Both the position numbers and the translations under genes were made by a program. A DNA stretch of 64,000 nt, from the NCBI GenBank assembly GCA_039586755.1, contig JBDHJU010000029.1, positions 3,007 to 67,006 on the forward strand, in the 5' to 3' direction. The notes beneath the pieces are model-generated. The model worked only from the letters and a program-made list of their open reading frames with translations, was not told where the DNA came from and did not search any database. This DNA is from Gemmatimonadota bacterium. Its GTDB lineage: Bacteria > Gemmatimonadota > Gemmatimonadetes > Palauibacterales > KS3-K002. Of this stretch, positions 514-35,032 are shown piece by piece; position 1 is the stretch's first letter, and each line of letters begins with the position of its first letter.

Positions 514-773
514 CCCGGTGACAGATCCTCGGCCGGCTGGCACCCGGGCGGTGGCAGGGTAGGTGGAAGGGCTCCACTGCCAGATACCACCAGGCCGTTG
601 GAGTTTCGTTCACTTCCCTTGCCCAACGTCAGCTGCAAAAATATACCGATCGTGCCTGTGACAGACTAGTATCCATACCTGATCGTCATAGGCTGGCGAT
701 CCGTACCTATAGAAGCCAACTTGTGGTGGGTGGTGGCGTGGCGTCCAGCCTAAGGGATTGGAGTTTCCCCGCC

Positions 774-2756
774 ATGATTGAGCTGGCTACCCTCGGCGGT
801 GCCTTGATTCGGCGCGATGGTTCGGAGTTCACCGGGCTGTCGGCGCACAAACAGAAGATCGCTCTTCTCTCCTACCTTGCGGTTGAAGGTCCTGTACCGC
901 GCGAATGTCTCGTCACGGTTTTTTGGCCCGACCGCGAGCAGGAAAAAGCCAGCCATTCGCTCTCCCAGGCGCTCTACGCACTCAAGAGAGAGGTCGGCAA
1001 AGAGATAGTCGGCGTCGCAGGCGAAGTGATCGACCTGATGTCGGAGTCCGTCTCCGTAGACATAAGGGAGATGCAAGCTGCAGGGCAAAAGGAGTGCTGG
1101 GAAGGCGTCGTTGGGCTCTATCGGGGAGCGTTCCTCGAAGGCTTCCATCTCCCGAAGGTGCCGGCTTTCGACGAGTGGCAGACGCGCACCCGGGCGTGGG
1201 TATGGAGTATGGCACGTAAGGCGTTCGGGAAGGTCATCGGGTCGCGCGCGGCAGCCGGTGATGTGGCGGGAGCGCTCGACATAGCCTGGCGTTGGGCGCG
1301 ACTCGAGCCGTTGGAGGACGAGGCGCAGCACGCACTTATCGCGCTGTTGGCGATGCACGGCGACCGGGTGGTGGCTCTGGAACAATACGATGCGTTCCGG
1401 GCACGCATGGTGGCTGAGTTCGAGGTGGAGCCGCTGCAGAACACGGTGGCGCTGGTGGAAGGCATCCGAGCGGGCGTGCGGCCAACGAGTCCGCTGATCG
1501 ACGAGGCACCGCTGGAATCAGTGGAGAGCCGCCCCGGGGTCGCGCCGATGAGCGGAACGGCGCCAGAAGTCGCCGCGGTGGTACCGCAGACGGAAGCCGA
1601 TGTCGAGCAGCTCTTGAGAGAAGAACTGGGGCCGAGCCTCGAGATCATTCGTAAGCTGGCAGAAGGCACCACCTCCACGGTCTACCTCGCCCATGAGCCA
1701 GCGTACCGGCGCTACGTTGCGGTCAAGGTCTTTTTGCCGAAGCTCGCCCCGGATCGTCGCGCGCGCCTGCGCTTCGGGCGTGAGGTGTTAGCCATCGGTT
1801 CTCTCACACACCCGAACGTCGTGGGGCTTTACTGGGGGGGAGCCCTGTCGAACGGGCTGCCGTACTTCGTCATGCAGTACGTCCCGGGCCCGTCGATGGC
1901 GCACAAGCTGAAGACACAAGGGAGGCTCCAAGTTTCCGATGCTCGCAAAGTGCTGGCGGGGATCGCTTGGGCGCTTGCCGCGGCGCACAGGCGCGCAATA
2001 GTGCACCGTGACGTCCAGCCGGGGAACGTACTCTGCGATGAGGACACCCAGCGCTGTCTTCTGGTCGACTTCGGAATCGCATCGATTCTGGCCACGGCGG
2101 AAGAACGGCCGGTGAGCATCACCGAGTCGGGTGAGCTGGTCGGCGATCCCGCCTGGATGAGCCCGGAACAGGTCAAAGCAGAGGAGGTCACGGGGCGGAG
2201 CGACGTCTACAGCCTGGGATTGCTGGGATACGCGCTGTTGGCGGAAGAGGGACCGTACATAGTGAAGTCGAGGGCGGATTGGTACGCTGCCCACGTCAAG
2301 CACGAGCCGCGGAGATTGTCCCAGCTCCGCCCCGAGGTCGACCCGGATCTGGACGATTTGCTCCTCGAGTGCCTGGCCAAGGACCCGCGGGATAGACCGA
2401 GCGCGGCCCGAGTCGCTGAACGGCTCACGTCACCTGTGCAAGAACGCCGTTTGGCACCTAGTTGGCTCCAACGGCTAATCGAGCGTCGCGTGCCGCACTA
2501 CGTTGGCGTGTACCTGGCGGCCGGCTTCGGGCTGTTCGAGCTGACCGATATCGCAATCGGGTGGCAGACTCTTCCGAGGTATGCCATGCCCCTCTACCTG
2601 GCCTCTTATTTCCTCGGTGTTCCCGTCGTTTCGATTGTGACGTGGTTTCACGGTAAGAAGGGCCCCCAGAAGGCCGAGAAGGTCGAGTTGGTGCTGCTAG
2701 GGGCAGCGCTCCTGCTCTGGGTCGTGGTCGGTGCGGCCATCCTGTCTTTGTTCTAG
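774..2756 (+). CDS. Membrane-anchored SARP-family (OmpR/PhoB-type winged-helix + BTAD) regulator fused to a degenerate Ser/Thr (pseudo)kinase domain and C-terminal 3-TM anchor
   Basis: N-terminus MIELATLGGALIRRDGSEFTGLSAHKQKIALLSYLAVEG...VFWPD...LSQALYALKREVG...VDIREMQ matches the SARP DNA-binding pattern, followed by a BTAD-like helical region. The kinase-like core has VAVKV and DFG, but the Gly-loop is degenerate (LAEGTTSTV) and the catalytic loop reads HRDVQPGN in place of HRDxKPxN. The C-terminus has 3 hydrophobic helices. The ORF track starts at 723 (GTG). ATG 774 was chosen because SARP proteins begin near the LGPL motif. Confidence 0.7.
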   Translation: MIELATLGGALIRRDGSEFTGLSAHKQKIALLSYLAVEGPVPRECLVTVFWPDREQEKASHSLSQALYALKREVGKEIVGVAGEVIDLMSESVSVDIREMQAAGQKECWEGVVGLYRGAFLEGFHLPKVPAFDEWQTRTRAWVWSMARKAFGKVIGSRAAAGDVAGALDIAWRWARLEPLEDEAQHALIALLAMHGDRVVALEQYDAFRARMVAEFEVEPLQNTVALVEGIRAGVRPTSPLIDEAPLESVESRPGVAPMSGTAPEVAAVVPQTEADVEQLLREELGPSLEIIRKLAEGTTSTVYLAHEPAYRRYVAVKVFLPKLAPDRRARLRFGREVLAIGSLTHPNVVGLYWGGALSNGLPYFVMQYVPGPSMAHKLKTQGRLQVSDARKVLAGIAWALAAAHRRAIVHRDVQPGNVLCDEDTQRCLLVDFGIASILATAEERPVSITESGELVGDPAWMSPEQVKAEEVTGRSDVYSLGLLGYALLAEEGPYIVKSRADWYAAHVKHEPRRLSQLRPEVDPDLDDLLLECLAKDPRDRPSAARVAERLTSPVQERRLAPSWLQRLIERRVPHYVGVYLAAGFGLFELTDIAIGWQTLPRYAMPLYLASYFLGVPVVSIVTWFHGKKGPQKAEKVELVLLGAALLLWVVVGAAILSLF

Positions 2757-2759
2757 GAG

Positions 2760-3269
2760 AAGACGCCAAGAATCCCGCCGATGCGAGGGATTTCGCGATC
2801 GCCGACGCGGCGATCTTCACCCGGGGGTTGAATCGTGAGAAGAAGCTCGCGGACTAGATCGCGCCGCTGGATCTGGCCGGTTCCCTCACGAAAGTCGCCG
2901 ACAACACGGAGGCGCTGGAGAAGCTATTCAAACAGGACCCGGACAAGATCCGCGACGCCAAGGTCTACTACAGCGTAGCCGAGACCTCGACTCACTACTT
3001 CCTCGTTTATGCCGCCTATCATTGGGGCCCACCGCTTCAGGCGCTCAGTGTTCAGGCCGAACAATGACGGCAAGTGGGGGTTCGTGTATCGAGACAAGAA
3101 CAAGCTAAAGGGCGGGGCGGCCAATCCGCTCTGGTCGTGGAACGACCGTAACGACACCAGTCCATTCGGTGAGATCGCCGCCGATCCCGCTCGCTTCATT
3201 ATTCGGTACGCGCAGGGCTGGGGACCGGTGAGCACCCACTACACGCACAATCCTCATCTAAATGTCTAG
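2760..3269 (+). pseudogene. Possible gene remnant: one reading frame interrupted by an in-frame TAG (2856-2858) and then a frameshift near 3010-3066
   Basis: Frame 1 reads EDAKNPADARDFAIADAAIFTRGLNREKKLAD*IAPLDLAGSLTKVADNTEALEKLFKQDPDKIRDAKVYYSVAETSTHYFLVYAAYHWG. Coding-like sequence then continues in another frame, as MPPIIGAHRF...GKWGFVYRDKNKLKGGAANPLWSWNDRNDTSPFGEIAADPARFIIRYAQGWGPVSTHYTHNPHLNV. There is no clean start, and the local GC is lower. Confidence 0.3.
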
Positions 3270-3986: not shown

Positions 3987-6476
3987 CTATTCTGCCACTA
4001 AGCCTTTGAATCTCGAGTCTTCTCTGAGTGGCTTAAACCACCAGTCCTTGGCAATTCGCGATCTCCTGGCGGGTTGTGCGTTGAGGTAGCGTTCGAGTAG
4101 GCGAAGCGTCTCCTCGACCTCGCCGAATTGCAGCCGGGCGTTTGCCTCGTGGTAGTCGAGTCGGGGATTCTCCTCGGGAGAAGCGGCTCGCGCTCGACCG
4201 ATCACAGCCCGGGCGCTGTCCTCCAAACCCGCCCGAGCCAGGACCGCGGCTACATCCATATCTACCCAGAGGCGGGTCCCTGCCCGCCGCTGCGGCCTCA
4301 TTAACTGAACGAGCGTATCGGCTAGTCCCCACGCCCGGTTGACATCGGGAAAGACCCCCACCACATCGGATGCCAGTACGGTAAGCTCGACATGAACGAA
4401 AGTCGGATTAGCGGGAAAACGCAGACGGCCCTCTTCAATGCACCAGTGACTGACTTCCTGGAACTGCTCGAGCTCGAGCACGGCCTGGCATAGCCGTATC
4501 ATGGTGATCGCATCGTTGTGCAGCCAAACATCCTCCTCGAGTGCTCGCTCCGCCGCGGACTTGGCCCGCTCGAAATTCCCCCTCTCCCAATAGACGTAGC
4601 TCAGGCGGCTCCAAGCCGCCGCGAGGGACGGCTTTAACCCAACCGCCTGTTCCAGGTCGCTCTGAGCGCCCTCCCATAAGCGCGCCATCTCTTCGGGATC
4701 GCCCGAGTTCTCGGCAAGATAAATTCGCAGATTACCGCGGAGTTGAAATGCTCTGGCATCGGACGGGTCGGTTTCGAGAGCGCGCTCCGCGTGACCCATT
4801 CCGAGGTGAGTCCAGTCGGCATCGTAGGTGCGCATGACGCCGGTGAGTCCCGCACGGTCGGCTGCCATCCAGCCCCGTTCCACGATGGGATCGCTCCATT
4901 CCGGGTCGCCGGATTCCGCCAGCGCGAGCAGCGAATCGGCCTGTTCTAGAGCCACCATTGCACCACTGCTGTCACCGGCAGTTCGGCGAGACCATGCCTG
5001 CTCCCTGAATGCTCTGGCCTCGAAAAAGTTCTCGAGGCACTGGGCACACGTGGTCACGGCCTCTGCTTCGATCCGCTCGATCCTGCTCCCCAGCTGCCTA
5101 CGAAGCAACCGGCCGACCTCTTCGGCGAGATCGCGCAACAGCAAGGCTTCCTCGGCCCGCGGTCTTGTCAGGGGGTCGATATTCGCAGTCCGCACGCGAG
5201 AGGCGGCGTCGGTCAAACCGGCCGACACTTCGATCTGCTGATCGGTTACGCCCACGCTGCCTCCGATCAGCATGTCGAGTCCGTGCCGCGCCACTATGCT
5301 GTCGACAGGAAAGCCCTCTCTGTCATAGCGGTGCATCGACTCCGGTGAGACTACGGCAAGTCCGCGAATGGCTCCGAGGTACTCGGCCAGGTAGTATGTA
5401 AAGCCTGCGGCCAAATGACTCGCGCCGTCCGCGCCGAACTCTTGAAAGGGAAGCACCGCGATGGTGGCAACCGGTGAGCTGCTTCGGCCAAGGATCCCGC
5501 CCTCTCTGAACAGCTTGTCGATCGCGTACGCCCCGCCAATCAGCAGCAGTGCGATAACGGCCCCGTAGGCGAACTGGCGCCGGCGGCGCAGGCGCGTCAC
5601 CCAGCGCCGCCAGACTGCGGCACGGAGCCGGCGCCGCGGCGCCACATGGGCCGTCAGCGACTGCGAGAATTGCTCGGCGGAGGGGAGCCGCTCGTCGGGC
5701 GAATTCGCGAGCGCGGTGCGTACGACGCGCTCGAGCCAGGGCGGTGTCTCCGGCCTGACTTCGCGCAGCGGCGGCGGTGCCTCGGTCAAGTGCTGGGCGA
5801 TAACGGCCTGAAGGGTGCGGCCGCTGAACGGCGGCTTGCCGGTGACCATCTCTTGGAGCACACAACCCAACGCGAAGATGTCGGTTCGGGCGTCCAGGTC
5901 GTGCTCGCCCGTCGCCTGCTCGGGACTCATATAAGAGGGGGTGCCGACGACGAAGCCGCTGGCGGTGAGCGTGCCACCGCCCGCCGCGGTGACGGCGCGC
6001 GCGATCCCGAAATCGGCGACCACCGCCTCGCCTTCCTCCAAGAGGATGTTCTCCGGCTTGATGTCCCGGTGAACGATGCCCCGCTTGTGAGCGTAGCCCA
6101 GCGCGTCCGCCGCCTGCCGTGCGATCTGGATCGCGTCCTCCAGCGGCAGCTGCTTCTCTCTCTTTAGCCGATCCCGTAGCGACTCACCCTCCACGTACGG
6201 CATGACGTAGTAGAGGAAGCCGTCGGATTGGCCGGAGTCATAGAGTGGAAGGATATGCGGGTGGGTCATCTTCGCCGCGATTTCGATCTCACGCAGGAAC
6301 CGCTCGCTGCCCAGGCTGGCCGCGCAGTCGCTCTTTAGAACCTTGAGGGCGACCAAGCGGTCATGCTTGAGGTCGCGGGCCAGGTAGACCGTCGCCATAC
6401 CGCCACTGCCCAGCGGTCGCTCGATGGGATAGCGGTCCGCTAGTGCCGAGCGCAGGTCGTCGGGCACCTGCGTCAT
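3987..6476 (-). CDS. Ser/Thr protein kinase with single TM segment and C-terminal TPR-repeat sensor domain
   Basis: MTQVPDDLRSALADRYPIERPLGSGGMATVYLARDLKHDRLVALKVL...HRDIKPENILL...ADFGIARA...GTPSYMSPEQ. It has a TM helix FAYGAVIALLLIGGAYAI and TPR-like helical repeats in the C-terminal half. The ORF track extends to 6599. ATG 6474-6476 was chosen because it is about 20 aa before the Gly-loop. Confidence 0.85.
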   Translation of the reverse strand: MTQVPDDLRSALADRYPIERPLGSGGMATVYLARDLKHDRLVALKVLKSDCAASLGSERFLREIEIAAKMTHPHILPLYDSGQSDGFLYYVMPYVEGESLRDRLKREKQLPLEDAIQIARQAADALGYAHKRGIVHRDIKPENILLEEGEAVVADFGIARAVTAAGGGTLTASGFVVGTPSYMSPEQATGEHDLDARTDIFALGCVLQEMVTGKPPFSGRTLQAVIAQHLTEAPPPLREVRPETPPWLERVVRTALANSPDERLPSAEQFSQSLTAHVAPRRRLRAAVWRRWVTRLRRRRQFAYGAVIALLLIGGAYAIDKLFREGGILGRSSSPVATIAVLPFQEFGADGASHLAAGFTYYLAEYLGAIRGLAVVSPESMHRYDREGFPVDSIVARHGLDMLIGGSVGVTDQQIEVSAGLTDAASRVRTANIDPLTRPRAEEALLLRDLAEEVGRLLRRQLGSRIERIEAEAVTTCAQCLENFFEARAFREQAWSRRTAGDSSGAMVALEQADSLLALAESGDPEWSDPIVERGWMAADRAGLTGVMRTYDADWTHLGMGHAERALETDPSDARAFQLRGNLRIYLAENSGDPEEMARLWEGAQSDLEQAVGLKPSLAAAWSRLSYVYWERGNFERAKSAAERALEEDVWLHNDAITMIRLCQAVLELEQFQEVSHWCIEEGRLRFPANPTFVHVELTVLASDVVGVFPDVNRAWGLADTLVQLMRPQRRAGTRLWVDMDVAAVLARAGLEDSARAVIGRARAASPEENPRLDYHEANARLQFGEVEETLRLLERYLNAQPARRSRIAKDWWFKPLREDSRFKGLVAE

Positions 6477-6840
6477 GGTAGCCACTCCGACCTGGAGCGC
6501 TGCGGGAGGGCGCAATGGTTGACAGGCGCAGGGCGCTGATGCGGTAGGTGGGTCCGTGGGTACGACAATACCACGGCTGAAGCCCGGTTTTGGGGACACT
6601 CACGTCTGAGCCTCAGCCCTTCCCCGTGACTCTATTATTCTGCCTGTTCTCCGGAGACGCAACCAGATCGAGTATTCCCTTGGAAACAGCCCTCCTCTTG
6701 CGCCCGGACGGTTTGACATACCCAACGGGCTTCCGTCCGCAATCGCGAGGACCGCTCATGCGTGGGCTCGGCGACGATGCGTCGTCCGTACGCGCCGCGG
6801 CGCTGGCCCTCGGTAGCATGCACTAGTTAAAGCGTCGCAG

Positions 6841-10743: not shown

Positions 10744-10933
10744 ATTTGGGTTGCCGCTGCAAGACCGGGCCCTAGATTACACTTGCTTTTCCGAGAAAGA
10801 TGTGACGTGCCTGGCCGATGGCACGCCATGCTGTTCCTGTGCGTTCGCCTGCGATGATTGGGAGCGGTGGACGCGGCGGAGGGCGGTGTGAGGCGAGCGC
10901 ATGGGCGACCTCATCGGACGGAGGGATGCTTCC

Positions 10934-13042
10934 ATGCGCCGGCCCAGCTGGAGCCGCAGGAGCGGCTACCTCATCGCGATCACCTCGGCCCTCTTGACCC
11001 TCAACACGTGCGGCGGCGGAGACGGTGGTGGAATCACCAACGTCATCACCGTGCCTACGAACATGGGGCCCGATGGTGGCACCCTGACGTTCGAGGGTGG
11101 CGACGTCACGGTGGTGTTTCCTGCCGGCGCAGTGTCGAGAGAGATCAAGGTCACCTGTGCGGAAGCAACCAGCTACCCCCAGGACGCTCGCGTCGTCGGC
11201 GGCGCGGTGTACCAGTTCGGGCCCGCCGGCACCAACTTCGCCCTCCCGGTCCAGCTGACCGTCAGGTATGACGAGAGCGGGGTGTCGGGCGGCGTTCGCG
11301 AAAACGAGCTTCGCCTGTTCGAGGCCGTAGGCTCGAATTGGGACGAGGTCGGTGGAAGCGCTGCTAACACGGTAGCCAACCAGGTGAGCGGTGCGATCGA
11401 CGGCTTCAGCACCTACGGCGTCCTCGGCGTCCCGGTGTCCTCGGTCGAGCTGGATGCCTACGAGAAGACGCTCCATATCGGCTGGGACCACGAGTTCCAG
11501 GCTACGCCCAAGGACGCCGACGGGAACCCGCTGCCCGACCGCCCGGTCGGCTGGTCGACCTCGAACCCCGCCGTCGCCACCCTCGCCCCGGAGCCGCCGG
11601 GCGTGGTCGTCGGTCTGAGGGGAGGTCGCGCGACGATCAGCGCTACCAGTGAAGATGTGGTCGTCGATGCGGACGTGACGGTGGAGGGTGACCCGTTCGG
11701 CCTCTACGGTTACATAGACATATTCGAAAAGGTGACGCCGTGCGCCGGCTGTCACTCGACACAGCACTTGAGTTGGGTGTCGACGCTCCACTCGGTCGCC
11801 TGGGGCGGTCTGCAGGCGAGCGCCTCCGTCCAACCGATGTGCGAGGGCTGCCACTCGGTGTCGGAGCGCGGCAATACGATAGAGGAGCCGGCCGGCCACG
11901 ACTTGGAGCCCGTCGAAGAGTTTACCGACGTGCAGTGCGAGTCGTGCCACGGAGCTGGCCCCGAGCACTGGCTGGGTCTCCCCGGCCCGGCCCCGCTGGC
12001 GCCGATCGCCGTCGGCCCAGAGCTCCCGAAGGGCTGCGGTGAATGCCACACCGGCACTCACCATCCTTACGTCGACCAGTGGAGCCAGTCGCGACACGCC
12101 ACCGTGCCTGCACAGGAGGGTTCGGCCGGCTCGATGCCGACCTGCATGGCGTGCCACGAGGGCAAGGCGGCGTTGGCGGAGAAGTTCTTCGAATCGACGG
12201 CTTACCTGGAGGAGGGCGACGGCGAGAACCAGCCCATCGTCTGTTCCGTCTGTCACGACCCGCACGGCTCGTTCTTCTCCGCCGATCTGCGCGCCGATGT
12301 CGCCGATCACTCGTTCGAGAACAACCTCTGTGTCAGGTGTCACGCTCGTCGCGGGTCGCCGCCCAGCCAGTTCGGCCCGCACGCGGCCCAGGGGCCAGTG
12401 GTATTGGGCTACAACGTCGGTTGGTGGCCCGGTGAGCCATTGATGCTGGGGCCCAGCGCACACGGAGACGAAATGAACGAGCGACTGTGCGCGACCTGCC
12501 ACGTCTCGGCATTCGAAGTCCTGGACCCGAACAGCGAGTTCGTCTTTCGGTCGGTGGGCCATCTCTTCACGGCGCTCACGTGCTTGGACCCCGAAGGAGT
12601 GCCCTGGCCCGGCCCGTGCGAGATCTTCGAGCGCGACTTCAGCGCCTGCGTGCCCTGCCACTTCAGTGCCGACGAGGCGCTGCAGCTCTATCTGGGCCTT
12701 CAGGGAGAGCTGCATTTCTACCTCGACTCGCTCTGGCTGGACACCGATGGCGACCATGTCATCGACGCGTCGGATCGTGGCCTGCTTCCGCGTGTAGTCG
12801 GACTGGGTGACCCGTTCGAGCTCGACATCACCGACGACGTGGTCACGGTGGCCGAGGGGGCGCTGTGGAACGCGCAGCTCGCCTTCACCACGGACCGCCC
12901 CTACTTCGGCGACGGCCAGGTGTTTGGGACTACGTTCTCCACATCTCCCAGCAGCGGCAACGGGATCCACAACCCCGTTCTGTTGCGCACGCTGCTCCAG
13001 ACTTCGATCGAAGCGGTGGTCGCTACTTACTTCAGCCAGTGA
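10934..13042 (+). CDS. Multiheme c-type cytochrome (9 CxxCH) lipoprotein/secreted protein with Big_2 bacterial Ig-like domain
   Basis: Signal peptide/lipobox-like LIAITSALLTLNTCGGGDGG. A Big_2-like segment (GWSTSNPAVATLAPEPPGVVVGLRGGRATISATSEDVVVDADVTV). Nine heme-binding motifs: CAGCH, CEGCH, CESCH, CGECH, CMACH, CSVCH, CVRCH, CATCH and CVPCH. Confidence 0.85.
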   Translation: MRRPSWSRRSGYLIAITSALLTLNTCGGGDGGGITNVITVPTNMGPDGGTLTFEGGDVTVVFPAGAVSREIKVTCAEATSYPQDARVVGGAVYQFGPAGTNFALPVQLTVRYDESGVSGGVRENELRLFEAVGSNWDEVGGSAANTVANQVSGAIDGFSTYGVLGVPVSSVELDAYEKTLHIGWDHEFQATPKDADGNPLPDRPVGWSTSNPAVATLAPEPPGVVVGLRGGRATISATSEDVVVDADVTVEGDPFGLYGYIDIFEKVTPCAGCHSTQHLSWVSTLHSVAWGGLQASASVQPMCEGCHSVSERGNTIEEPAGHDLEPVEEFTDVQCESCHGAGPEHWLGLPGPAPLAPIAVGPELPKGCGECHTGTHHPYVDQWSQSRHATVPAQEGSAGSMPTCMACHEGKAALAEKFFESTAYLEEGDGENQPIVCSVCHDPHGSFFSADLRADVADHSFENNLCVRCHARRGSPPSQFGPHAAQGPVVLGYNVGWWPGEPLMLGPSAHGDEMNERLCATCHVSAFEVLDPNSEFVFRSVGHLFTALTCLDPEGVPWPGPCEIFERDFSACVPCHFSADEALQLYLGLQGELHFYLDSLWLDTDGDHVIDASDRGLLPRVVGLGDPFELDITDDVVTVAEGALWNAQLAFTTDRPYFGDGQVFGTTFSTSPSSGNGIHNPVLLRTLLQTSIEAVVATYFSQ

Positions 13043-13065
13043 CTAGGTCTGAACAGGGGGACAAG

Positions 13066-13659
13066 GTGAGCGGCGAAAAGGGACACGACGAAGACGCCAT
13101 TGTCATCGACCCGCGTCGGCGTGATGAGATCCTGCGCGAGCTGAGGGAGCAAAGCGGCGAGAAGGCGGTCCGCGAGTACATAGTCGACGAATCGGTGGAC
13201 CGCCTATCGAAGGCCAAACCAGACGATGTCCAGGAAATAGCGACAGCTTCGATGCGCCTTCTCAACGCTTACCACAATGAAGCCTTGGGTCAGTCGCGAA
13301 AGAGCTTCAATTGGGCCCTGGTTCTGGCGGCGGTGGGCTTCGGTTTCTTCTTGTTTGCGGTTGCCGTGCTGTTGTTCACAACGATTCAAGAGGTCACGCT
13401 CGTTGGTGTGGTGGGTGGCGCGATCTCCGAACTTGTCGCTGGCATCGTCTTCTACCTCTACGGTAAGAGCTCAGAACAGCTCGCTGAGTCTCAAAGTCAA
13501 CTCGATAGGACACAACGGTTTCTTCTGGCCAACAGCGTATGTAGCGCGATTGAGGGTGAGGACCGGGACAAGACACGTGCCGAGCTCGTTCGGGCTATCA
13601 GTGGAATCGTCCCGCTGCAGGACGAAAAACCGGTGGTAGATCAAGATCAGGAAGAGTGA
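13066..13659 (+). CDS. Hypothetical 2-TM membrane protein (about 197 aa; cytoplasmic N-terminal region, TM hairpin, acidic C-terminal tail), lower GC
   Basis: GTG 13066 is preceded by GGGGGA. The N-terminus is charged (IVIDPRRRDEILRELREQSGEK...). Two adjacent hydrophobic helices follow: NWALVLAAVGFGFFLFAVAVLLF and VTLVGVVGGAISELVAGIVFYLY. The tail is acidic (...PLQDEKPVVDQDQEE). GC is visibly lower than in the flanking sequence. The ORF track's 12865 start overlaps the cytochrome gene. Confidence 0.6.
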   Translation: MSGEKGHDEDAIVIDPRRRDEILRELREQSGEKAVREYIVDESVDRLSKAKPDDVQEIATASMRLLNAYHNEALGQSRKSFNWALVLAAVGFGFFLFAVAVLLFTTIQEVTLVGVVGGAISELVAGIVFYLYGKSSEQLAESQSQLDRTQRFLLANSVCSAIEGEDRDKTRAELVRAISGIVPLQDEKPVVDQDQEE

Positions 13660-13666
13660 GGGGATC

Positions 13667-14167
13667 GTGGGCAATCCGACGAATGCCGAGCTTGCCGAGC
13701 AGATCGCGGCAGTGACTCACATTACCGCGGGCAAAGTAGAGAGCATGTGTCCCGCCAAGGCCGAGAAGGACCTGCTGGTCCACCTTTTGGGGGTCGCGAG
13801 GTCAGGCAGCCGGTCGTGGAACGCCAGGGTTGCAGAATTGGAGGCGCAAGTCCGACCGCTCGCCGACCTGATCCTGAGGTTGGTGAGACACATGCACAGT
13901 CTCACCGGCCTGACGGCGTTGAGGAAGGCGGCAACAAATAGAAAGATCACCAACGATGAGCTCGCGCAAGAAATCAGGAAGTCAACGCGTCTAAGGGCGG
14001 AACAGATACATAGCGTGGCACCGCGGCGCTCCGACAAGGAGAAACTCATCGCTCTGTTGGACATTACCTACTCGCGTAAGAGCAGGGATGCCCGCAAAGC
14101 TGCGTTGAGGAGGCAGATTTCTGACCTGGCAGATGTGATCTTGAAGTTGGTCAAGCACGTCCTCTAA
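13667..14167 (+). CDS. Hypothetical helical protein composed of an internal tandem duplication (2 x ~72 aa)
   Basis: GTG start lies 8 nt after the upstream stop, preceded by GAGGGG. Repeat 1 is TNAELAEQIAAVTHITAGKVESMCPAKAEKDLLVHLLGVARSGSRSWNARVAELEAQVRPLADLILRLVRH. Repeat 2 is TNDELAQEIRKSTRLRAEQIHSVAPRRSDKEKLIALLDITYSRKSRDARKAALRRQISDLADVILKLVKH. The two align position by position. Confidence 0.6.
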   Translation: MGNPTNAELAEQIAAVTHITAGKVESMCPAKAEKDLLVHLLGVARSGSRSWNARVAELEAQVRPLADLILRLVRHMHSLTGLTALRKAATNRKITNDELAQEIRKSTRLRAEQIHSVAPRRSDKEKLIALLDITYSRKSRDARKAALRRQISDLADVILKLVKHVL

Positions 14168-14316
14168 TCGACCAAGCTCCCCGGGCTGGACCCAACCTTG
14201 ACCTCGGCCCGGACCTCCGCCTTCACCCCGAGGTAGCCTGTTGACCGAAACAGCGGAGTGTTAATATCGGGCCTCGAGAAACAGGTCCGCCGATCCCCGA
14301 CTAGAAGGGACTCACC

Positions 14317-14914: not shown

Positions 14915-16348
14915 ATGGCATCCGACGCACACGACGTCCGATACATCTGCCTCTCCGATCTCCACCTCGGTGAGCCGGACAGCATCCTCACACCCCTCAT
15001 GCCGACTAGCCACGAGGTCGACCCTTCCAGGGTGGGACCCGTGCTCGAGCAATTGGTCCTCTGTCTCGAGCAGGTGGTCGAGAGGAATCGCGGCGACCGG
15101 CGTCCCATACTCATCCTCAACGGCGACGTTCTCGAGCTCGCCTTCGGCACCTTCAGCCAGGCGCTGACCAACTTCGAGCGACTGGCCGGACTGCTGCTCG
15201 AGCGCGAGCTGTTCGAGAAGCTGGTCTACATCCCCGGCAACCACGACCATCACATCTGGGAGGTCGCCCGCGAGACGCAGTACGGGATTACGCTCGCCGG
15301 CCGTAGATCGGGCCAAGGCGGCCTGCCGCCGCTTCGGCATGTGACATCGCTCAGCCTCGAGGAGGCCGTCCCCGCCTTCCTGCTGGGCAAGATCATCGAG
15401 GGGATCCACCCGCCGCATGGCCCGGAAGATGAAGGCCACGAAGTCCTCGTCGTCTACCCGAACCTGGCCCTGTTCGATGAGTCGAGGGACCGGGGCGTCC
15501 TGTTTCATCACGGCCATTACGTCGAGCCGCTATACCATTTCTTCAGCAAGCTCAGGCGCTGGTTATTCCCCGACCGCCCGCAGGCGCAGACTATCGATGA
15601 GATCGAGGAGGAGAACTTCGCCTGGATCGAGTTCGTCTGGTCGCTGCTCGGTCGTTCGGGCGGCGCCGGCGCCGACATGCGCCTGCTTTATCGCATGTTC
15701 CGCACTCCCGACGAGTACGAGGCCTTCGCCGATGCGCTGGCCAAACGATCCGTCGCTGTGATCGACCTGCCGTGGATTCCGGGCGACAAGCTGGAGCGCC
15801 TGGCGCTAAAAAAGCTCTTTACCTGGGTGGGCCCGAAGCTTTCCGGCGAGCGATCCAAACGCCAGGTCGTTGAATCGCCGGAGCTGCGGAGCGGGATCGA
15901 GACTTATCTCTTCGGCCCGGCGTACAAGCAGATGCGCGACGAACTGGGCCACGTGCCCGAGGACCTGACCTTTGTGTTCGGACATACCCACAAGCCGTTC
16001 GAGGACGTCTTCGACGATCCATCCGGGAACGGCCAGGTCAAAGTCTTCAACACGGGAGGCTGGCCCATCGACTCGATAGAGCCCAGCAACGCGATGGGTG
16101 CTTCGATGCTCTTCTTGAACGAGAGGCTCGATGTCGCCTGCCTGCGCATCTTCAACGATGGGGAAGAGGGAGGGGAAGTGACTCTGGAGGTTCGCGGGCC
16201 CAAGGGAGCTGGGGACGGCGATGAATTTTGCGCGTCACTCGAGGAGTGCGTGACCGGCACGGCGGGCGAGCCCTGGCAGGAGCTGGAGGCGCGCATACAC
16301 AAGGCGATCGCGCGCCGGCGGCGCGACCTGCGGGAGGAACCACATTGA
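14915..16348 (+). CDS. Metallophosphoesterase (calcineurin-like phosphoesterase) family protein
   Basis: Motifs ICLSDLHLG, ILNGDVLE and GNHDHH are the characteristic metallophosphoesterase metal-binding signatures. Confidence 0.8.
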   Translation: MASDAHDVRYICLSDLHLGEPDSILTPLMPTSHEVDPSRVGPVLEQLVLCLEQVVERNRGDRRPILILNGDVLELAFGTFSQALTNFERLAGLLLERELFEKLVYIPGNHDHHIWEVARETQYGITLAGRRSGQGGLPPLRHVTSLSLEEAVPAFLLGKIIEGIHPPHGPEDEGHEVLVVYPNLALFDESRDRGVLFHHGHYVEPLYHFFSKLRRWLFPDRPQAQTIDEIEEENFAWIEFVWSLLGRSGGAGADMRLLYRMFRTPDEYEAFADALAKRSVAVIDLPWIPGDKLERLALKKLFTWVGPKLSGERSKRQVVESPELRSGIETYLFGPAYKQMRDELGHVPEDLTFVFGHTHKPFEDVFDDPSGNGQVKVFNTGGWPIDSIEPSNAMGASMLFLNERLDVACLRIFNDGEEGGEVTLEVRGPKGAGDGDEFCASLEECVTGTAGEPWQELEARIHKAIARRRRDLREEPH

Positions 16349-18027: not shown

Positions 18028-19983
18028 CTAATCAGGCTTTAGCAGCTTATCGACCTCGAGCTGTGCCTCGAGCAGTTGATCGATATCGTCCGCCACCTCA
18101 CGCGCCGCCGCCAGATCACCGGTCAGACTCTCGACGCTACCCGAACCGGCCTGCATGCGCAGCAGGCTCAGGCGAATCGTTTCCAGCGCCGCCACGGCGT
18201 CGGCCAGACGTTGCTGGGTGGCGTCACGGGCCGCAAACAGGTCGTCCGACAGCTTCTGACGTTGCAGGGCGACCTTGCTGCTCTCGTCGGGTGACGGCGA
18301 CGCCTCCAGGGCACGGCTTTCGGACCGCTCGCTGCCGACTTCTGCGAGTACCTCGTTCAAGTCCTCGATCCGGGTGCGCATCTTCTGGGCATCGAACTGC
18401 AACTTGCGCACGATATCAGGAAGCTCCTTGAGCGACCTGCGCAGCTCGCGGGGCAGCCCTTCGAACAAGCGGTCGGCGGCCAGGCCGATCGCCAGCTCGG
18501 TGGGTCGATAGGTTGCCGACCCTGCGGCCGGGACTCGCTTGAGGCCGAGGCCGGCGATCTTGAAGACCCAGCGCCCGAGGCGCGACTTCCAGAACCAGCC
18601 GCGTATCTCGCGGTCGATGCCGCGGCGCCACTGGAGACGAACGAGCGCCAGGACGCCGGCACCGAGTCCGACGGTCAACGAGTAGAAGATCGTGGTGTAC
18701 AGACCCACGCCAGCGGCGCTTCCGGTGAGTGCCAGGGCACCAAGGCCGGCGGCGCCGGCCAGACCGACGCCGCTGATCACGCGCACGACCTTCTCGTATC
18801 TCGACGGGCCGTGCCCGAACTGGAAGGCGCCCTCCTCGCGCGCGCGATCGATATCCGCTTTGAAGGCGATGGGCAGCTCTTCCTGGCCGTAGCCGGCCTT
18901 GAGCAGGCGGCGGGCGCGATTGACAATGATGCCGGCGGGAACCAGGGTGACCCCGGCGACGGCCGTGCCGATCCCCGCACCGACTCCCAGGCTATAACCG
19001 AGGAACTCGCCAACCGTCGCCCCAACCATGGCCGAGATTACCGTCAGCGCCCACAGGTAGACGATGATTCCGCCGGTGCCCATCCGGCCTTCTCGTTTGA
19101 CGAAGACGCGTAACGGCACGGGAAGTTCTCGGCGCTCGGGGAGCGCCTGTCCGAACGATTCGGCCAGTTCGTCATCGCTGGCGAAGCGCTTGACCGGGTC
19201 CTTGGCCAGGCAGCGATCGATGGCACGGGCCAGCCTGCCGGGCACGTTTTGCGCGACCTTCACCACGGGTAGCGGTGCCTCGCTGATGTGCTTGGCGAGT
19301 ATCACCTGGGGGGTGGAGCCCTCGAACGGGAAGTGGCCGCTCAGCGCGTAGTAGCCGACCACGCCGAGGGAGTATGTGTCGCTGGCCGGTCCCACCGCCT
19401 CGCCTCTCGCCTGTTCGGGGCTGATGAACTCCGCTGTGCCCGATACCTGGCCCGGTTCGGCCGTCCCGGCGCTCTCCGCCACGCTCGCGATGCCGAAATC
19501 CACCACCAGGGCCCGCCCGCTTCCCGATTCGAGAAGGATGTTGTCCGGCTTGATGTCACGGTGAACGACTCCCTGAGCGTGCGCGTAGCCCAACGCCCAG
19601 GCGACCTCGCGGAGGATACGGGCGACTTCAGAAGGTGGCCGCGGGCCGCGGGCCCGGATACACTCTCCAAGCGACTCGCCGTCGATGTAGGCCATCGCGA
19701 ACAGTACAAACTCGCCGACCTCATCTACCGAGAAGATCGGCACGATGTTTGGGTGCGACAGCCTGGCCGCGGTGCGCGCCTCGTCGAGGAACCGCTCGCG
19801 CGCTGCCGGCTTCTCCGCCAGTTCGGGCGGCAGGATCTTGATGGCCACCGGCCGGTCGAGGCTGACCTCGCGGGCCAGGTAGACGATCCCCATACCGCCG
19901 CGACCCAGCTCGCGTTCCAGCGAATAACGACCGGCCAGCGCTTCTTGGAGCTTGTAAAAGTCGGCGCTCGGCTCGTCGGGCAT
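18028..19983 (-). CDS. Ser/Thr protein kinase with multi-TM C-terminal region and terminal coiled-coil
   Basis: MPDEPSADFYKLQEALAGRYSLERELGRGGMGIVYLAREVSLDRPVAIKIL...HRDIKPDNILL...VDFGIA...SPEQ. Several Gly/Ala-rich hydrophobic helices follow, and the C-terminal end is helical and Leu/Glu/Ala-rich. ATG 19981-19983 was chosen over the ORF track's GTG 20058. Confidence 0.85.
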   Translation of the reverse strand: MPDEPSADFYKLQEALAGRYSLERELGRGGMGIVYLAREVSLDRPVAIKILPPELAEKPAARERFLDEARTAARLSHPNIVPIFSVDEVGEFVLFAMAYIDGESLGECIRARGPRPPSEVARILREVAWALGYAHAQGVVHRDIKPDNILLESGSGRALVVDFGIASVAESAGTAEPGQVSGTAEFISPEQARGEAVGPASDTYSLGVVGYYALSGHFPFEGSTPQVILAKHISEAPLPVVKVAQNVPGRLARAIDRCLAKDPVKRFASDDELAESFGQALPERRELPVPLRVFVKREGRMGTGGIIVYLWALTVISAMVGATVGEFLGYSLGVGAGIGTAVAGVTLVPAGIIVNRARRLLKAGYGQEELPIAFKADIDRAREEGAFQFGHGPSRYEKVVRVISGVGLAGAAGLGALALTGSAAGVGLYTTIFYSLTVGLGAGVLALVRLQWRRGIDREIRGWFWKSRLGRWVFKIAGLGLKRVPAAGSATYRPTELAIGLAADRLFEGLPRELRRSLKELPDIVRKLQFDAQKMRTRIEDLNEVLAEVGSERSESRALEASPSPDESSKVALQRQKLSDDLFAARDATQQRLADAVAALETIRLSLLRMQAGSGSVESLTGDLAAAREVADDIDQLLEAQLEVDKLLKPD

Positions 19984-20120
19984 GGGGGAGCATGCATGCG
20001 CGGACCTCCGTACGCAAGGCGCAGCGGGCGGCAGCCGTCCTGTGGACTCGGGACCCACCGGGGCCTAGTTTGGCGCGGATTGCGAGCGACCCAACCCCAC
20101 ACGATTCTGGAGTGATTGCC

Positions 20121-32208: not shown

Positions 32209-34566
32209 GTGAACGATAGGCGCAGCAAGCTGGGCCTCGCGCTGTCCGGCGGCGGTTTCCGGGCATCCTTCTTCCATCTCGGCGTCCTGCGGCGCCTGGC
32301 CGAGCTCGACGTTCTCAGGCACGTGGAGGTCCTCTCCACCGTATCCGGCGGTTCCATACTGGCGGCCCTCTACATCCTCGTCCTAAAAAAGTACATCGAT
32401 CGCAAAGCCGACCTAGACCGCGACGACTACGTCGAGATCGTCAAGGAGGTCGAGGACGATTTCCTCGCGGGTGTTCGCAAGAACCTGCGCACGCGGCTGC
32501 TGTTGAACCCGTTCGCGACACTCTGGATCATCGTGTCGAACTCGACCCTGGCTCAGCGGATGAGCCGTCTGTACCAACGTCATCTCTACAGGCGGATCGT
32601 CGACGAGCTTCGCCACAAAGGCCAGCTGAAGCGCGCGGGGAAGGCGGGCGAGGTCGCCCTCAAAGATGCTCGTTTCCTGCCAGGAGGCGAAGAAGTCGTC
32701 GGTGGGGTGGAGGAGTACAACCGCACGCACTCGACCAAAATCCCGCAGCTCGTCCTCAACGCCACGACCCTCAATTCCGGGCGCGATTGGCGGTTCACCA
32801 GTGTCGAGGTCGGCGATTCGGTGCTCGGGTTCCTGCGTTACGACGAGATCGACGACCTCGTCGACTACCGGCGCGAGCTGGCAGAGAGAGCGCTCGAGGA
32901 CCTCATACGGAGCGTTGAGACACCGCCGCAGCGCTTCGGGTCCGAGGTGGTGGTGGCGGCCATCTTCCGGCTGCTGTGGCAGGAAGCCGACGCCGAGGCT
33001 AGGGCCGATTTCGGGAAGCACGCCCGAGAGGTACTGACGGGTGCAGGCATCGACCTCGGCCCTTGGCCGGTTCTCGACGGGATCTGTAAAGAGGGGTTCC
33101 CCCTTCGCCGCTTCATGTCCTGCGAGCTGGGTGAATTGCGGGCGGCCAAGCAGGAAGCGTGGTATGTGTGCCGCGGCCCGCGTGACGGTGTGCCGGCGGG
33201 ATTACCGCGCGGCCAGCGCGCCCGTCGCTTCTGGTTGGCGATACGCGAAATCGGAGCGGATGTCTGGGGCGAGTGCCGACGGCTAGTCGGCGAGTCGCCC
33301 GAGCGGCTAGAAGCTCTGATGGCGTTCGTTATCGATCTCTACCAGCTGCGCACGAGTCTTCTCATCGGTTCGAAAGCGAAGCGTGACTTCGAGAAGATCA
33401 CGCTTGCCGATGCGGTGGCGGCCTCGGCCTGCTTCCCGCCCGTGTTTCCGCCCTACACGATCCTCGGCCTCTACGATGATACACACGTTGCCACGCTGCG
33501 CCTCACCGACGGCGGCGTCTTCGACAATCAAGGCATGTCAGCGCTCTTCGAGGAAGAGTGCACGCACATCATCGCCAGCGATGCCGGCGGCCTGATGCAG
33601 GTCGAGCGGCGCGTGACGGCGGGTCGCTTCGGGATGATGGGACGGATCTTCTCGATCCTGATGGACAACGTTCGTAACCTCCAGATTCGTAGGTTGAGGG
33701 AGGAGCGGCGCGTCACGGCGGGCCTCAGCGGAGTCGACGGCCAGGATCCTGCCCTGGACGATCTCAAGCAGCGATACGGGCTGGATGGCGCCGCGTTCTT
33801 CCATATGACCACACCTCCCGAGGACGGCGATCCGGAGGGCCTGCCGCCTCACCCGGAAGCGAAAGCAATCGCCTGCATCCGCACCGACCTCGACGCCTTC
33901 GGCGACGGCGAGATAGCTGCACTTTTCTACCAGGGCTATTCGCTCGCCGATCGCTTCGTGCGCCGGTACCTCGGCCGCTCGCCGTTCGCTTCGTCCGACT
34001 GGAAACCGGCCGACCGCGCACCGCTGCCGCGGATGAGGCAAGAGGATTGCCCGGCCCGGAGATTCGCCGAGGGAGGTGAACGGAGGGTCATCGAGGCGGG
34101 CGCACTACGTTTCTTCAGGTCGCTGAAATTGAGGGCCTGGGAAGCGTGGCTGTTCACCCTCGCCTTGCTTGCCGGTGCGATCGTCGCTGGCTGGGAGGTT
34201 AGCCTATCGCTCGCCGGTCTTTTGGCGGCGCTCGGCGACGCGCTGGAAAGAATATGGCCTTTTGCGGTGGACCGACCGGTGCCGGTGGTCGTATGGGTTC
34301 TGGGTATAGCGCTGCTCATCGCCTGGTACGTCCTCTGGCCGAAGCTGATGCGGAAGCTTGGAAAGGTGCGCCCGTTCGTTACCATCGTTAAGTGGATACG
34401 CGCCATCGCCGGAAACTTCCTGTGGGTCTTCGGGCTGCTTCCGGTCTGGGTGTCCCTCGCTGGCGCGTTGATCGCCACGACAAGTCACGTCGTATATAAT
34501 GGTGCATTCCTACGCGTCACAGGTTACTTCGATCGTTGCCTCGAGTCCTGGTTGGGAGAGGGCTGA
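32209..34566 (+). CDS. Patatin-like phospholipase with large C-terminal extension ending in a multi-TM domain
   Basis: Oxyanion hole LALSGGGFRASFFHLGVL. Nucleophile region VLSTVSGGSILAAL, a GxSxG variant. Catalytic Asp motif LRLTDGGVFDNQG. C-terminal hydrophobic helices are WLFTLALLAGAIVAGW, VPVVVWVLGIALLIAWYVLW and NFLWVFGLLPVWVSLAGALIA. The start is uncertain between GTG 32209 and GTG 32104. Confidence 0.8.
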   Translation: MNDRRSKLGLALSGGGFRASFFHLGVLRRLAELDVLRHVEVLSTVSGGSILAALYILVLKKYIDRKADLDRDDYVEIVKEVEDDFLAGVRKNLRTRLLLNPFATLWIIVSNSTLAQRMSRLYQRHLYRRIVDELRHKGQLKRAGKAGEVALKDARFLPGGEEVVGGVEEYNRTHSTKIPQLVLNATTLNSGRDWRFTSVEVGDSVLGFLRYDEIDDLVDYRRELAERALEDLIRSVETPPQRFGSEVVVAAIFRLLWQEADAEARADFGKHAREVLTGAGIDLGPWPVLDGICKEGFPLRRFMSCELGELRAAKQEAWYVCRGPRDGVPAGLPRGQRARRFWLAIREIGADVWGECRRLVGESPERLEALMAFVIDLYQLRTSLLIGSKAKRDFEKITLADAVAASACFPPVFPPYTILGLYDDTHVATLRLTDGGVFDNQGMSALFEEECTHIIASDAGGLMQVERRVTAGRFGMMGRIFSILMDNVRNLQIRRLREERRVTAGLSGVDGQDPALDDLKQRYGLDGAAFFHMTTPPEDGDPEGLPPHPEAKAIACIRTDLDAFGDGEIAALFYQGYSLADRFVRRYLGRSPFASSDWKPADRAPLPRMRQEDCPARRFAEGGERRVIEAGALRFFRSLKLRAWEAWLFTLALLAGAIVAGWEVSLSLAGLLAALGDALERIWPFAVDRPVPVVVWVLGIALLIAWYVLWPKLMRKLGKVRPFVTIVKWIRAIAGNFLWVFGLLPVWVSLAGALIATTSHVVYNGAFLRVTGYFDRCLESWLGEG

Positions 34567-34567
34567 T

Positions 34568-35032
34568 ATGAGACATAGCGGGAGAGATACGGGGAAGGCG
34601 CTGCGTCGAGCGCTGCAGCTGACCGTCCTGGCCGCGACATTGGCCGGGCTAGGCTGCCAGATCAAGCTGGTCGCCGACTACGATGAGATCACCGACCGCT
34701 CGATCACTGCACTGCAGCGCGAGTTCGAGCTCTTCTTCATCGACGTAGAGCGCAATCTCCACACGCCCGATGCGGTTCATGACAACTACATCGGGTTCTA
34801 CGACGAGGTGCGGGCCGAATTGAGCGTCATAAGGGTGCGCGCCGCCGCCCGGCCGAAGAACGAGATCACAGTCGAGCAACTCGACCTCGTGGCGCAGAAC
34901 GTCGACAATCTCGAGGAGCTGCACAAATTAGGGTTCGACAGTCCGGAGGAGCTGGAACCGCTACGCGCCGCGTTTCAGCAGAGCTTCCAGGCGATACTGA
35001 CGCTTGAGCTGGCCAAGAAGCGGGGCCAGTAG
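34568..35032 (+). CDS. Hypothetical secreted (possibly lipo-)protein, translationally coupled to patatin gene
   Basis: ATG lies 1 nt after the patatin TGA. Signal peptide MRHSGRDTGKALRRALQLTVLAATLAGLGCQIKL. The mature region is DYDEITDRSITALQREFELFFIDVERNLHTPDAVHDNYIGFYDEV.... No family was recognised. Confidence 0.55.
   Translation: MRHSGRDTGKALRRALQLTVLAATLAGLGCQIKLVADYDEITDRSITALQREFELFFIDVERNLHTPDAVHDNYIGFYDEVRAELSVIRVRAAARPKNEITVEQLDLVAQNVDNLEELHKLGFDSPEELEPLRAAFQQSFQAILTLELAKKRGQ

Follow-up and report, generated by a model that had tools for sequence, protein, structure and literature searches.

A stand-alone CTA2TM membrane protein and a doubled helical partner encoded in a variable chromosomal slot of a Gemmatimonadota bacterium

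Introduction

Between a gene for a multihaem cytochrome and a gene for an outer membrane protein (OMP)-like product, a Gemmatimonadota bacterium carries two small, tightly linked genes, here called gene 1 and gene 2, which encode a predicted inner-membrane protein and a basic helical protein. They lie in a stretch of 64,000 nucleotides (nt) of contig JBDHJU010000029.1 (positions 3,007 to 67,006), referred to below as the window, whose numbering is used throughout. An initial annotation made from the sequence alone described the pair as a horizontally acquired membrane effector with a repeat-containing partner, resembling a minimal abortive-infection or conflict module. The question raised by this locus is what the two proteins are and whether they form such a system or serve the envelope of their host in another way. 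Here we describe gene 1 as a stand-alone member of the CTA2TM family and gene 2 as a doubled form of a small helical unit, and we weigh what the pair may do.

Results

Gene 1 is a stand-alone member of the CTA2TM family

The product of gene 1 matched the Pfam family PF20712 (CyanoTRADDas_TM, CTA2TM) with an E-value of 2.7e-16 and 59.9 bits, the cut-off being 24.3, and its residues 72-139 covered profile positions 1-68 of 68. Judged from this profile match, membership in PF20712 is clear at the domain level, and the initial statement that the protein could be placed in no named family does not hold. The full name of the family is Cyanobacterial TRADD-N associated 2-Transmembrane domain, and it stems from a computational study of bacterial TRADD-N conflict proteins, the supplement of which lists architectures such as TIR+TRADD-N+TM+TM, TM denoting a transmembrane helix (PMC8195603). 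Neither gene 1 (at E≤10) nor the neighbouring genes matched TRADD-N; the TRADD-N context is where PF20712 was found and not a domain requirement, and the membership of gene 1 stands. Of the earlier suggestion of a SLATT-type or other two-TM domain, the second half was borne out by CTA2TM, but SLATT_1 stayed below threshold (E=0.089, 13.3 bits versus a cut-off of 26.3), no other model of SLATT (PF18181 and relatives) matched at E≤10 and neither did DUF4231. NCBIfam and PHROGs returned no family for gene 1. A total of 42 homologues of gene 1 were found, all but one (P0047) carrying PF20712. The 51 CTA2TM loci detected in reference genomes belong mostly to filamentous taxa (Thiothrix/Thiolinea, Chloroflexia, Anaerolineae and Leptolyngbyaceae), with others in Acidobacteriota and Rhodocyclaceae and the nearest one in a Gemmatimonadota metagenome-assembled genome.

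The charged N-terminal region, the TM hairpin and the acidic tail that had been described initially were all seen in gene 1 (Table 1). Both hydrophobic helices fall within residues 80-133 and are separated by a loop of only 4-5 residues, while the protein as a whole has a net charge of -12 and an isoelectric point (pI) of 4.7, its C-terminal 63 residues having a net charge of -7. In an alignment of 30 sequences from several phyla, conservation reached well past the Pfam model, extending over the pre-membrane helix, the glycines of the hairpin (Gly91 in TM1 and Gly118 in TM2, both invariant), Glu122 inside TM2 (at least 90% conserved) and a post-TM motif, LDRTQRFLLANSxC. Within this motif L155, T158, Q159, L163, A164, N165, S166 and C168 are invariant, in the numbering of a 206-residue version of the protein (see below) in which G100, G127 and E131 are the equivalents of Gly91, Gly118 and Glu122. 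So high a conservation of the glycines, of Glu122 and of the post-TM motif speaks for a specific function of the hairpin beyond that of a passive anchor. Longer CTA2TM proteins have a constant C-terminal two-TM module behind variable N-terminal modules (HTH_3, HEAT, SH3_3 or unannotated). For gene 1, AlphaFold2 (AF2) predicted a long helical hairpin, but with so low a confidence (pLDDT 62.6) that the model was kept out of fold searches; helices were predicted in its N-terminal extension at residues 25-39 and 41-58 (206-residue numbering), also with low confidence.

Gene 2 is a tandem duplication of a small helical protein

The two halves of the gene 2 product are 40% identical over 72 residues (BLASTP E=8e-17), far beyond chance, which confirms the internal duplication of about 72 residues noticed initially. 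Moreover, each half independently matched the profile of a family of single-unit proteins, unit 2 outscoring unit 1 (domain i-E values of 1.3e-24 and 5.9e-17, respectively), and alignment of gene 2 with this family by hhalign gave a probability of 99.4% (E=1.6e-21). Gene 2 is therefore best described as a tandem duplication of a small helical protein. It has a pI of 10.4 and a net charge of +12, and its AF2 model shows ten helices in a compact helical fold (pLDDT 93, pTM 0.87).

A word-indexed search of 5.8 billion proteins returned only six close relatives of gene 2. When 1.84 billion representatives were searched exhaustively with the profile, 111 matches to the unit were obtained, corresponding to two two-unit clusters (P0006 and P0049) and about 105 single-unit proteins of 83-118 residues. 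The unit family comprises about 110 clusters at 50% identity, and most of its members are acidic to neutral, the median pI being 6.2. A rough neighbour-joining tree placed unit 1 of gene 2 with the single-unit proteins P0051 and P0052, the latter encoded behind a CTA2TM gene, and gave all two-unit proteins the same unit-1/unit-2 correspondence, which implies one duplication event.

Like the initial annotation, searches of Pfam, PADLOC, NCBIfam and PHROGs matched gene 2 to no named family. Not one of 59 scanned unit-family members reached a Pfam threshold, NCBIfam was likewise empty, and the helical unit family of about 87 residues is not covered by these four libraries. Foldseek searches with gene 2 against PDB and BFVD gave only uninformative matches of E≥1, and comparison with PDB sequence profiles yielded only composition-driven matches to designed helical repeats, which were rejected. 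The conserved residues of the unit are those of helix caps (T, N, P, D and K), and this pattern, together with the compact helical fold of the model, argues for a partner that is probably non-enzymatic.

One branch of unit genes follows CTA2TM genes that carry a specific extension

All seven two-unit clusters, as well as the single-unit P0052, are encoded directly 3' of a CTA2TM gene, with a spacing that goes from a 7-nt gap to a 14-nt overlap (1 nt apart in L015, an 8-nt overlap in L076 and a 14-nt overlap in L070). Such short spacers and overlaps suggest translational coupling of genes 1 and 2. Among the 47 other CTA2TM loci in reference genomes, none had a unit-like open reading frame (ORF) within 3.5 kb, and a general conserved partner for CTA2TM genes was sought in these loci and rejected, their neighbours being lineage-specific housekeeping genes.

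A hidden Markov model (HMM) of the N-terminal extension of gene 1 matched only P0007-P0017 and L017 (E from 1e-21 to 1e-26) and none of about 80 other CTA2TM proteins (E>0.1). Extension and unit partner co-occur at every locus of known context, which covers the extension carriers other than the close relatives P0012, P0013 and P0015. In addition, all CTA2TM-linked unit proteins are basic (pI 9.5-10.4), and the net charges of gene 1 and gene 2 are opposite. From the adjacency, the clade-specific extension and the opposite charge, we infer that the two proteins bind each other, with the extension (residues 1-45) as a candidate docking site for the unit partner.

The pair behaves as a long-resident cassette in a variable slot

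The gene order of the window (multihaem cytochrome, pair, OMP-like gene and a gene for a 477-residue metallophosphoesterase) was also found in L001-L007, L013-L015 and L017. In total, the pair was found in four contexts, namely the window type, L016, L070 and L076. The neighbourhoods of L070/L071 and of L016 are unrelated to that of the window. In L076 the flanking genes are 71-80% identical, whereas gene 1 is only 46% and the single-unit partner 34-43% identical; there the pair is located between the OMP-like gene and the 477-residue gene, with no cytochrome gene between DinB and the OMP-like gene. In L079/L080 the same flanks (77-89% identical) in the same gene order enclose an unrelated gene of 351 codons, which has no Pfam or NCBIfam family. 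Directly past ...TACTTCAGCCAG, where the cytochrome gene stops, the window loses its similarity to L080 and regains it only some 15 nt 5' of the OMP start.

The GC content of the pair is 0.573, compared with a mean of 0.641 for the window (standard deviation 0.025, 1.1-kb windows), which places it in the lowest 0.6% of windows. At third codon positions (GC3), gene 1 has a value of 0.65 and gene 2 of 0.74, while adjacent genes have 0.77-0.86; relative to a rough set of 34 proxy genes, this corresponds to a z-score of -2.2 for gene 1 and of only -0.8 for gene 2. The composition of gene 1 is clearly atypical and that of gene 2 mildly so, and the initial remark that GC content and codon usage differ from the flanks stands. 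The low GC3 of the pair is present in all lineages. Universal conservation with typical codon usage was thus not found, as the cargo of the slot differs in L079/L080, a far more divergent version is present in L076, the neighbourhoods of L070/L071 and L016 are unrelated, GC3 is low and, as described next, synonymous divergence differs from that of the flanks.

Compared with L007, gene 1 is 86% and gene 2 73% identical at the amino acid level, and the flanks are 76-89% identical. Synonymous divergence (dS) between the pair in the window (13066-14167) and in L007 (4066-5164) was 0.28 (95% confidence interval 0.21-0.36), versus 0.48 (0.43-0.535) for five flanking genes, and none of 5000 equal-size flank subsamples had a dS as low as the pair. 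This suggests either that the pair has a history separate from that of the flanks, such as a later exchange between lineages, or that its synonymous sites are unusually constrained. The ratios of nonsynonymous to synonymous divergence (dN/dS) were 0.27 for gene 1 and 0.52 for gene 2, the latter being the highest in the locus. Both genes are under purifying selection, which supports that the pair is functional. As related lineages share the slot, amino acid divergence is like that of the flanks and selection is purifying, the insertion does not appear to be recent. The horizontal acquisition proposed initially is therefore supported as regards a cassette between conserved genes (by the replacement in L079/L080, the other contexts and GC3), but not as regards a recent arrival, and these sequence comparisons support that the pair behaves as an acquired cassette long resident in a variable slot. 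The window has no tRNA genes, a search for direct or inverted repeats flanking the pair gave nothing convincing, and no integrase or transposase gene lies in any context of the pair.

At 2813-3263 (+), in another low-GC patch, the window carries a degraded remnant of the 351-codon gene of L080, recognised as two tblastn fragments (80% identical to residues 39-108 and 71% identical to residues 262-350) that lack the part in between. The alternative cassette gene is thus also present, in broken form, elsewhere in this genome.

Relatives of the unit are paired with lipoproteins, in part on phage genomes

Genes for single units were also found on unrelated metagenomic contigs, directly after a homologous gene for a helical Sec-type lipoprotein (188-265 residues), in five contexts (L068, L072, L073=L077, L078 and L074), which represent four readable single-unit members and one 80%-identical relative from a scan of viral contigs. 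Two of these five contigs, 122.8 kb and 43 kb long, come from the viral collection IMG/VR and carry P0195. In L073, a shorter copy of the 122.8-kb contig (identical where compared), the pair adjoins genes for DNA polymerase A, gp32 and a 5'-3' exonuclease. No library recognised the lipoprotein family or the unit family of these pairs.

These pairs resemble genes 1 and 2 in that a small protein, homologous to each half of gene 2 (99.4%), is encoded directly after and coupled to the gene of a membrane-associated protein. They differ in having an exported lipoprotein as partner and only one copy of the unit, which is acidic to neutral in most cases and in part encoded by phages. Homology between the lipoprotein and CTA2TM was rejected (hhalign probability 0.2%), and so was export of the signal-less unit by hitch-hiking through the Tat pathway, as the lipoproteins carry ordinary Sec-type signal peptides without a conserved twin arginine.

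The window itself has a second low-GC pair, in its lowest-GC patch, formed by 34499-35032 (177 residues, lipobox LAGLGC) and 35041-35370 (+) (109 residues). Here a helical lipoprotein-like protein is followed 8 nt later by a helical protein, an arrangement that resembles the lipoprotein and unit pairs. As a relative of those pairs it was rejected, since neither HMM matched (E>1).

Layout of the locus and neighbouring genes

The coordinates of the features are collected in Table 1. The two ORFs are present as described initially, and their starts, both GTG, were upheld. Gene callers frequently choose another GTG for gene 1, at 13039, which gives the 206-residue version and overlaps the cytochrome stop; the start at 13066 is better supported because the homologues P0010-P0012 begin at the matching position. 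The tight linkage and the ribosome-binding sites that had been noted, with a gap of 8 nt, were seen as G-rich Shine-Dalgarno-like stretches 5' of each start, though the true spacer is 7 nt long and 8 is the difference between the end and start coordinates.

Table 1. Coordinates of the gene pair, its parts and the surrounding segment in the window
Feature	Position	Strand	Description and basis
Variable cassette segment	13043..14300	+	From the multihaem cytochrome stop codon to ~15 nt 5' of the OMP-like ATG; similarity to L080 breaks and resumes there; GC 0.573
Shine-Dalgarno-like AGGGGGA	13055..13061	+	4 nt 5' of gene 1 GTG; conserved in L007; read from sequence
Gene 1, stand-alone CTA2TM (PF20712) predicted inner-membrane protein, 197 residues	13066..13659	+	Pfam match, 42 homologues, homologue starts, dN/dS
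N-terminal cytoplasmic helical extension, predicted, residues 1-45, DPxRREEILRELxExxGxEAVR	13066..13200	+	HMM, partnered clade only; AF2 helices
Predicted transmembrane hairpin, TM1 ~83-105, TIQEV, TM2 ~111-132	13312..13461	+	Hydropathy scan, conserved columns, Pfam match
Post-membrane motif, predicted cytoplasmic, LDRTQRFLLANSVC, residues 146-159	13501..13542	+	Most conserved stretch of the family; outside the Pfam model
Acidic C-terminal tail LQDEKPVVDQDQEE	13615..13656	+	Read from sequence
Spacer GGGGATC, with Shine-Dalgarno-like GGGG (13660-13663)	13660..13666	+	Read from sequence; gene spacing in relatives
Gene 2, basic all-helical protein, tandem duplication of ~87-residue unit, 166 residues	13667..14167	+	Internal repeat, AF2 model, hhalign
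Repeat unit 1, residues 2-77	13670..13897	+	HMM domain 1, i-E 5.9e-17; charge +1, near neutral; groups with P0051/P0052
Repeat unit 2, residues 82-166	13910..14164	+	HMM domain 2, i-E 1.3e-24; charge +11, strongly basic
Spacer 5' of OMP-like gene, 149 nt	14168..14316	+	TTGACC 14241-14246, 15-nt gap, TAATAT 14262-14267; sequence and comparison with L007

Only 23 nt separate the cytochrome gene from gene 1. As this leaves almost no room for a promoter, the pair is probably read through from the upstream cytochrome gene and co-transcribed with it in this genome; in L070 the pair has its own upstream spacer of 730 nt. In the spacer 5' of the OMP-like gene, the promoter-like TTGACC/TAATAT element is conserved in L007, but a consensus scan of this spacer gave no promoter or meaningful terminator, with nothing above shuffled expectation, and for this reason its reading as a promoter is weak. 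No intrinsic terminator was called there either.

The neighbours of the pair encode the multihaem cytochrome, the OMP-like protein, the metallophosphoesterase, a HAD hydrolase, DinB and kinases. The upstream gene (10901-13042, +) encodes a 713-residue multihaem cytochrome with an MtrC/MtrF-like domain and several CxxCH motifs. Its N-terminal region matched Pfam ZU5 barely above threshold (23.2 bits versus 21) and showed similarity to Big_1/Big_2; in animals, ZU5 is known as an autoproteolytic domain in proteins of death signalling, and the match seen here may reflect a beta-sandwich resemblance only. Downstream, the gene at 14915-16348 (+) encodes the 477-residue calcineurin-like metallophosphoesterase (Metallophos, 23.4 bits versus 21.5), which is widely conserved, with relatives encoded in 93 metagenome stretches, the best 80 of which were kept as loci. 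This gene adjoins the pair in the window-type and L076 arrangements, and not in L070 or L016. Further off, the gene at 723-2756 (+) fuses a BTAD/SARP-like N-terminal domain to a Ser/Thr kinase with C-terminal TM helices, and a homologue of its N-terminal part directly follows the pair in L016 (701-1273). The window has further Ser/Thr kinase genes, for example at 3987-6599 and 18028-20058.

Discussion

A partner-gated membrane effector is the reading of the pair that we favour, as a tentative choice that falls short of an even chance. In such a system the doubled unit of gene 2 would act as a single-chain version of a dimer and would bind gene 1 at its acidic cytoplasmic regions, above all at the N-terminal extension, keeping the membrane protein inactive while bound. 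Were the partner lost or displaced, through stress, infection or proteolysis, the hairpins of gene 1 would be free to associate by way of their glycine faces, giving an oligomer that conducts ions or disrupts the membrane, so that the membrane potential would collapse as with a toxin-regulator or abortive-infection pair.

Several results weigh against this proposal. A comparison with PADLOC-DB 2.0 gave no family at E≤10 for either gene, and only noise-level matches for seven neighbours and two unit proteins. The pair is not located in a defence island, no defence genes are nearby, and no SMODS, SLOG, TIR or cyclase genes were found in the neighbourhood. A pattern scan of 2.9 million viral contigs of IMG/VR found no CTA2TM. 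Solo CTA2TM genes of Thiothrix/Thiolinea show stable inheritance among housekeeping genes, a behaviour not usually seen in suicide effectors, and most unit-family members whose context was read pair with an exported lipoprotein and not with a pore former. Moreover, in the TIR+TRADD-N+TM+TM and HTH_3 fusions the two-TM module stands at the position expected of a sensor or anchor and not of an effector. No literature mention of PF20712 was found, nor experimental characterisation of any CTA2TM protein. The initial likening to an abortive-infection or conflict module is in consequence left with no direct support, given the empty PADLOC results, the lack of a defence island and the housekeeping synteny of the Thiothrix solo genes. 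A viral origin of the pair was considered and rejected, as IMG/VR held no CTA2TM, two-unit or P0052-like protein and its one weak match (L159) was not confirmed by HMMs.

The solo genes just mentioned occupy two conserved neighbourhoods in many Thiothrix/Thiolinea species (L030-L060), one beside a divergent oligopeptide-type ABC ATPase and the other flanked by a histidine-phosphatase-like gene and a convergent cold-shock gene. Such synteny suggests that solo CTA2TM genes are stably inherited by vertical descent in these filamentous bacteria.

The main alternative, which we consider only slightly less likely, is that the pair is a membrane sensor or anchor with an adaptor and no toxin, the CTA2TM hairpin tethering an output module at the membrane. 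The buried glutamate would suggest sensing of the proton-motive force or of the lipid state, gene 2 being recruited to or released onto another target; in other members of the family the output would be fused (HTH_3, TIR-TRADD-N, HEAT, SH3), and a role in envelope physiology or stress signalling is possible. This would agree with the fact that CTA2TM always stands C-terminal to variable cytoplasmic modules, among them the DNA-binding HTH_3 and TIR+TRADD-N, and in TRADD-N proteins the C-terminal position is one where repeats, small-molecule-binding, adaptor or DNA-binding domains are placed (PMC8195603). The conserved housekeeping synteny of solo members in Thiothrix, the lack of defence genes or PADLOC matches nearby, the probable co-transcription of the pair with a multihaem cytochrome gene next to an OMP-like gene, and the partnership of unit-family relatives with another envelope protein, the lipoprotein, all point in the same direction. 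However, the neighbours change over the four contexts, with no cytochrome gene at that place in L076, and the pair is thus not tied to the cytochrome or the OMP-like protein; a close relative has an unrelated gene in its place, which makes the pair dispensable; its atypical composition and dS point to an accessory, exchanged element; and no downstream target of gene 2 is evident.

Gene 2 might also be a nucleic-acid-binding regulator with a helix-turn-helix (HTH)-like fold that gene 1 retains at the membrane, much as a sigma factor is retained by its anti-sigma factor, and then releases to bind DNA or RNA, but we regard this as improbable. Gene 2 and all CTA2TM-linked units are strongly basic, the start of the unit (TNxELAxxIxxxTxLxxxxI) resembles HTH patterns, sub-threshold matches of HTH type were obtained (HU-HIG, E=0.021; MerR/HTH_17 for P0049, E 0.04-0.15; the PHROG 'HTH DNA binding protein', E=0.056), and one member of the CTA2TM family has a fused HTH_3. 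Against this, none of the 59 scanned unit-family members reached the threshold of an HTH model and fold searches were uninformative, the majority of unit-family members are acidic to neutral, and the conserved residues look like helix caps and not like a recognition helix. Less probable still is a remnant of a phage lysis cassette with gene 1 as class II-type holin and gene 2 as antiholin-like regulator, for although the two TM helices, the charged C-terminus, a weak Phage_holin_3_6 match (E=0.0093) and the phage-borne branch of the unit family (P0195) would fit, that match was rejected at 16.5 bits versus a cut-off of 28.4, no endolysin, spanin or phage gene lies near the pair in any context, the IMG/VR scan held no CTA2TM, the pair is under purifying selection in several lineages, and class II holins are typically two to three times shorter than the gene 1 protein. 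The rest of the probability lies with functions beyond these four readings.

The pair can be compared with several known systems. With the CTA2TM proteins of TRADD-N systems, gene 1 shares the whole profile above threshold, and its homologues concentrate in filamentous or multicellular bacteria, as reported for TRADD-N (Kaur, Iyer, Burroughs & Aravind 2021, PMC8195603). Unlike them, it lacks TRADD-N and any enzymatic effector domain and has neither STAND nor caspase genes as neighbours; it is stand-alone, bears a short helical extension and has a partner encoded by a second gene, its host is not a cyanobacterium but a member of the Gemmatimonadota, and its motif LDRTQRFLLANSxC lies outside the Pfam model. 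SLATT two-TM domains are predicted to be pore-forming (Burroughs et al. 2015, PMC7159879), and in gene 1, as in these domains, cytoplasmic helices follow a two-helix membrane hairpin; pore formation is the functional analogy that we favour. Gene 1 fails the SLATT profile test and has no nucleotide-signal genes nearby; it is not a SLATT member but, by this analogy, may work like one. To class II holins the likeness is one of topology, charged tail and weak profile similarity, while the greater length of gene 1, its score below threshold and the lack of a lysis-gene context set it apart. Toxin-regulator and abortive-infection modules are often small, translationally coupled pairs of a membrane-acting toxin and a soluble partner. 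The pair resembles such modules as a small two-gene unit of a membrane and a soluble protein, with cassette-like mobility and atypical composition, and differs in matching no known or candidate defence family of PADLOC and in lying outside a defence island.

What is new at this locus is the combination of a stand-alone CTA2TM protein bearing a clade-specific extension with a doubled helical unit, a two-gene architecture not found in PADLOC. More speculatively, and in our view rather unlikely, the unit could represent a new and fairly widespread family of small adaptors of bacteria and phages that live in obligate pairs with membrane-associated proteins, its doubled form, a single-chain pseudo-dimer, together with a stand-alone CTA2TM pore former making up a hitherto unrecognised, abortive-infection-like minimal two-gene membrane-suicide system that hops between slots in Gemmatimonadota. 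If the effector reading is wrong, the pair would be an ordinary accessory membrane module, and nothing in the locus overturns current ideas. In any case, CTA2TM is known from computational work only, and a stand-alone version with one small partner offers the simplest setting in which to distinguish a pore-forming effector from a membrane sensor. The locus is, in addition, an example of a chromosomal slot where cargo is exchanged from one close relative to the next, and the unit family is an unannotated family of small proteins, missed by family databases, that pairs with either of two membrane-associated proteins, one of which occurs on phage genomes.

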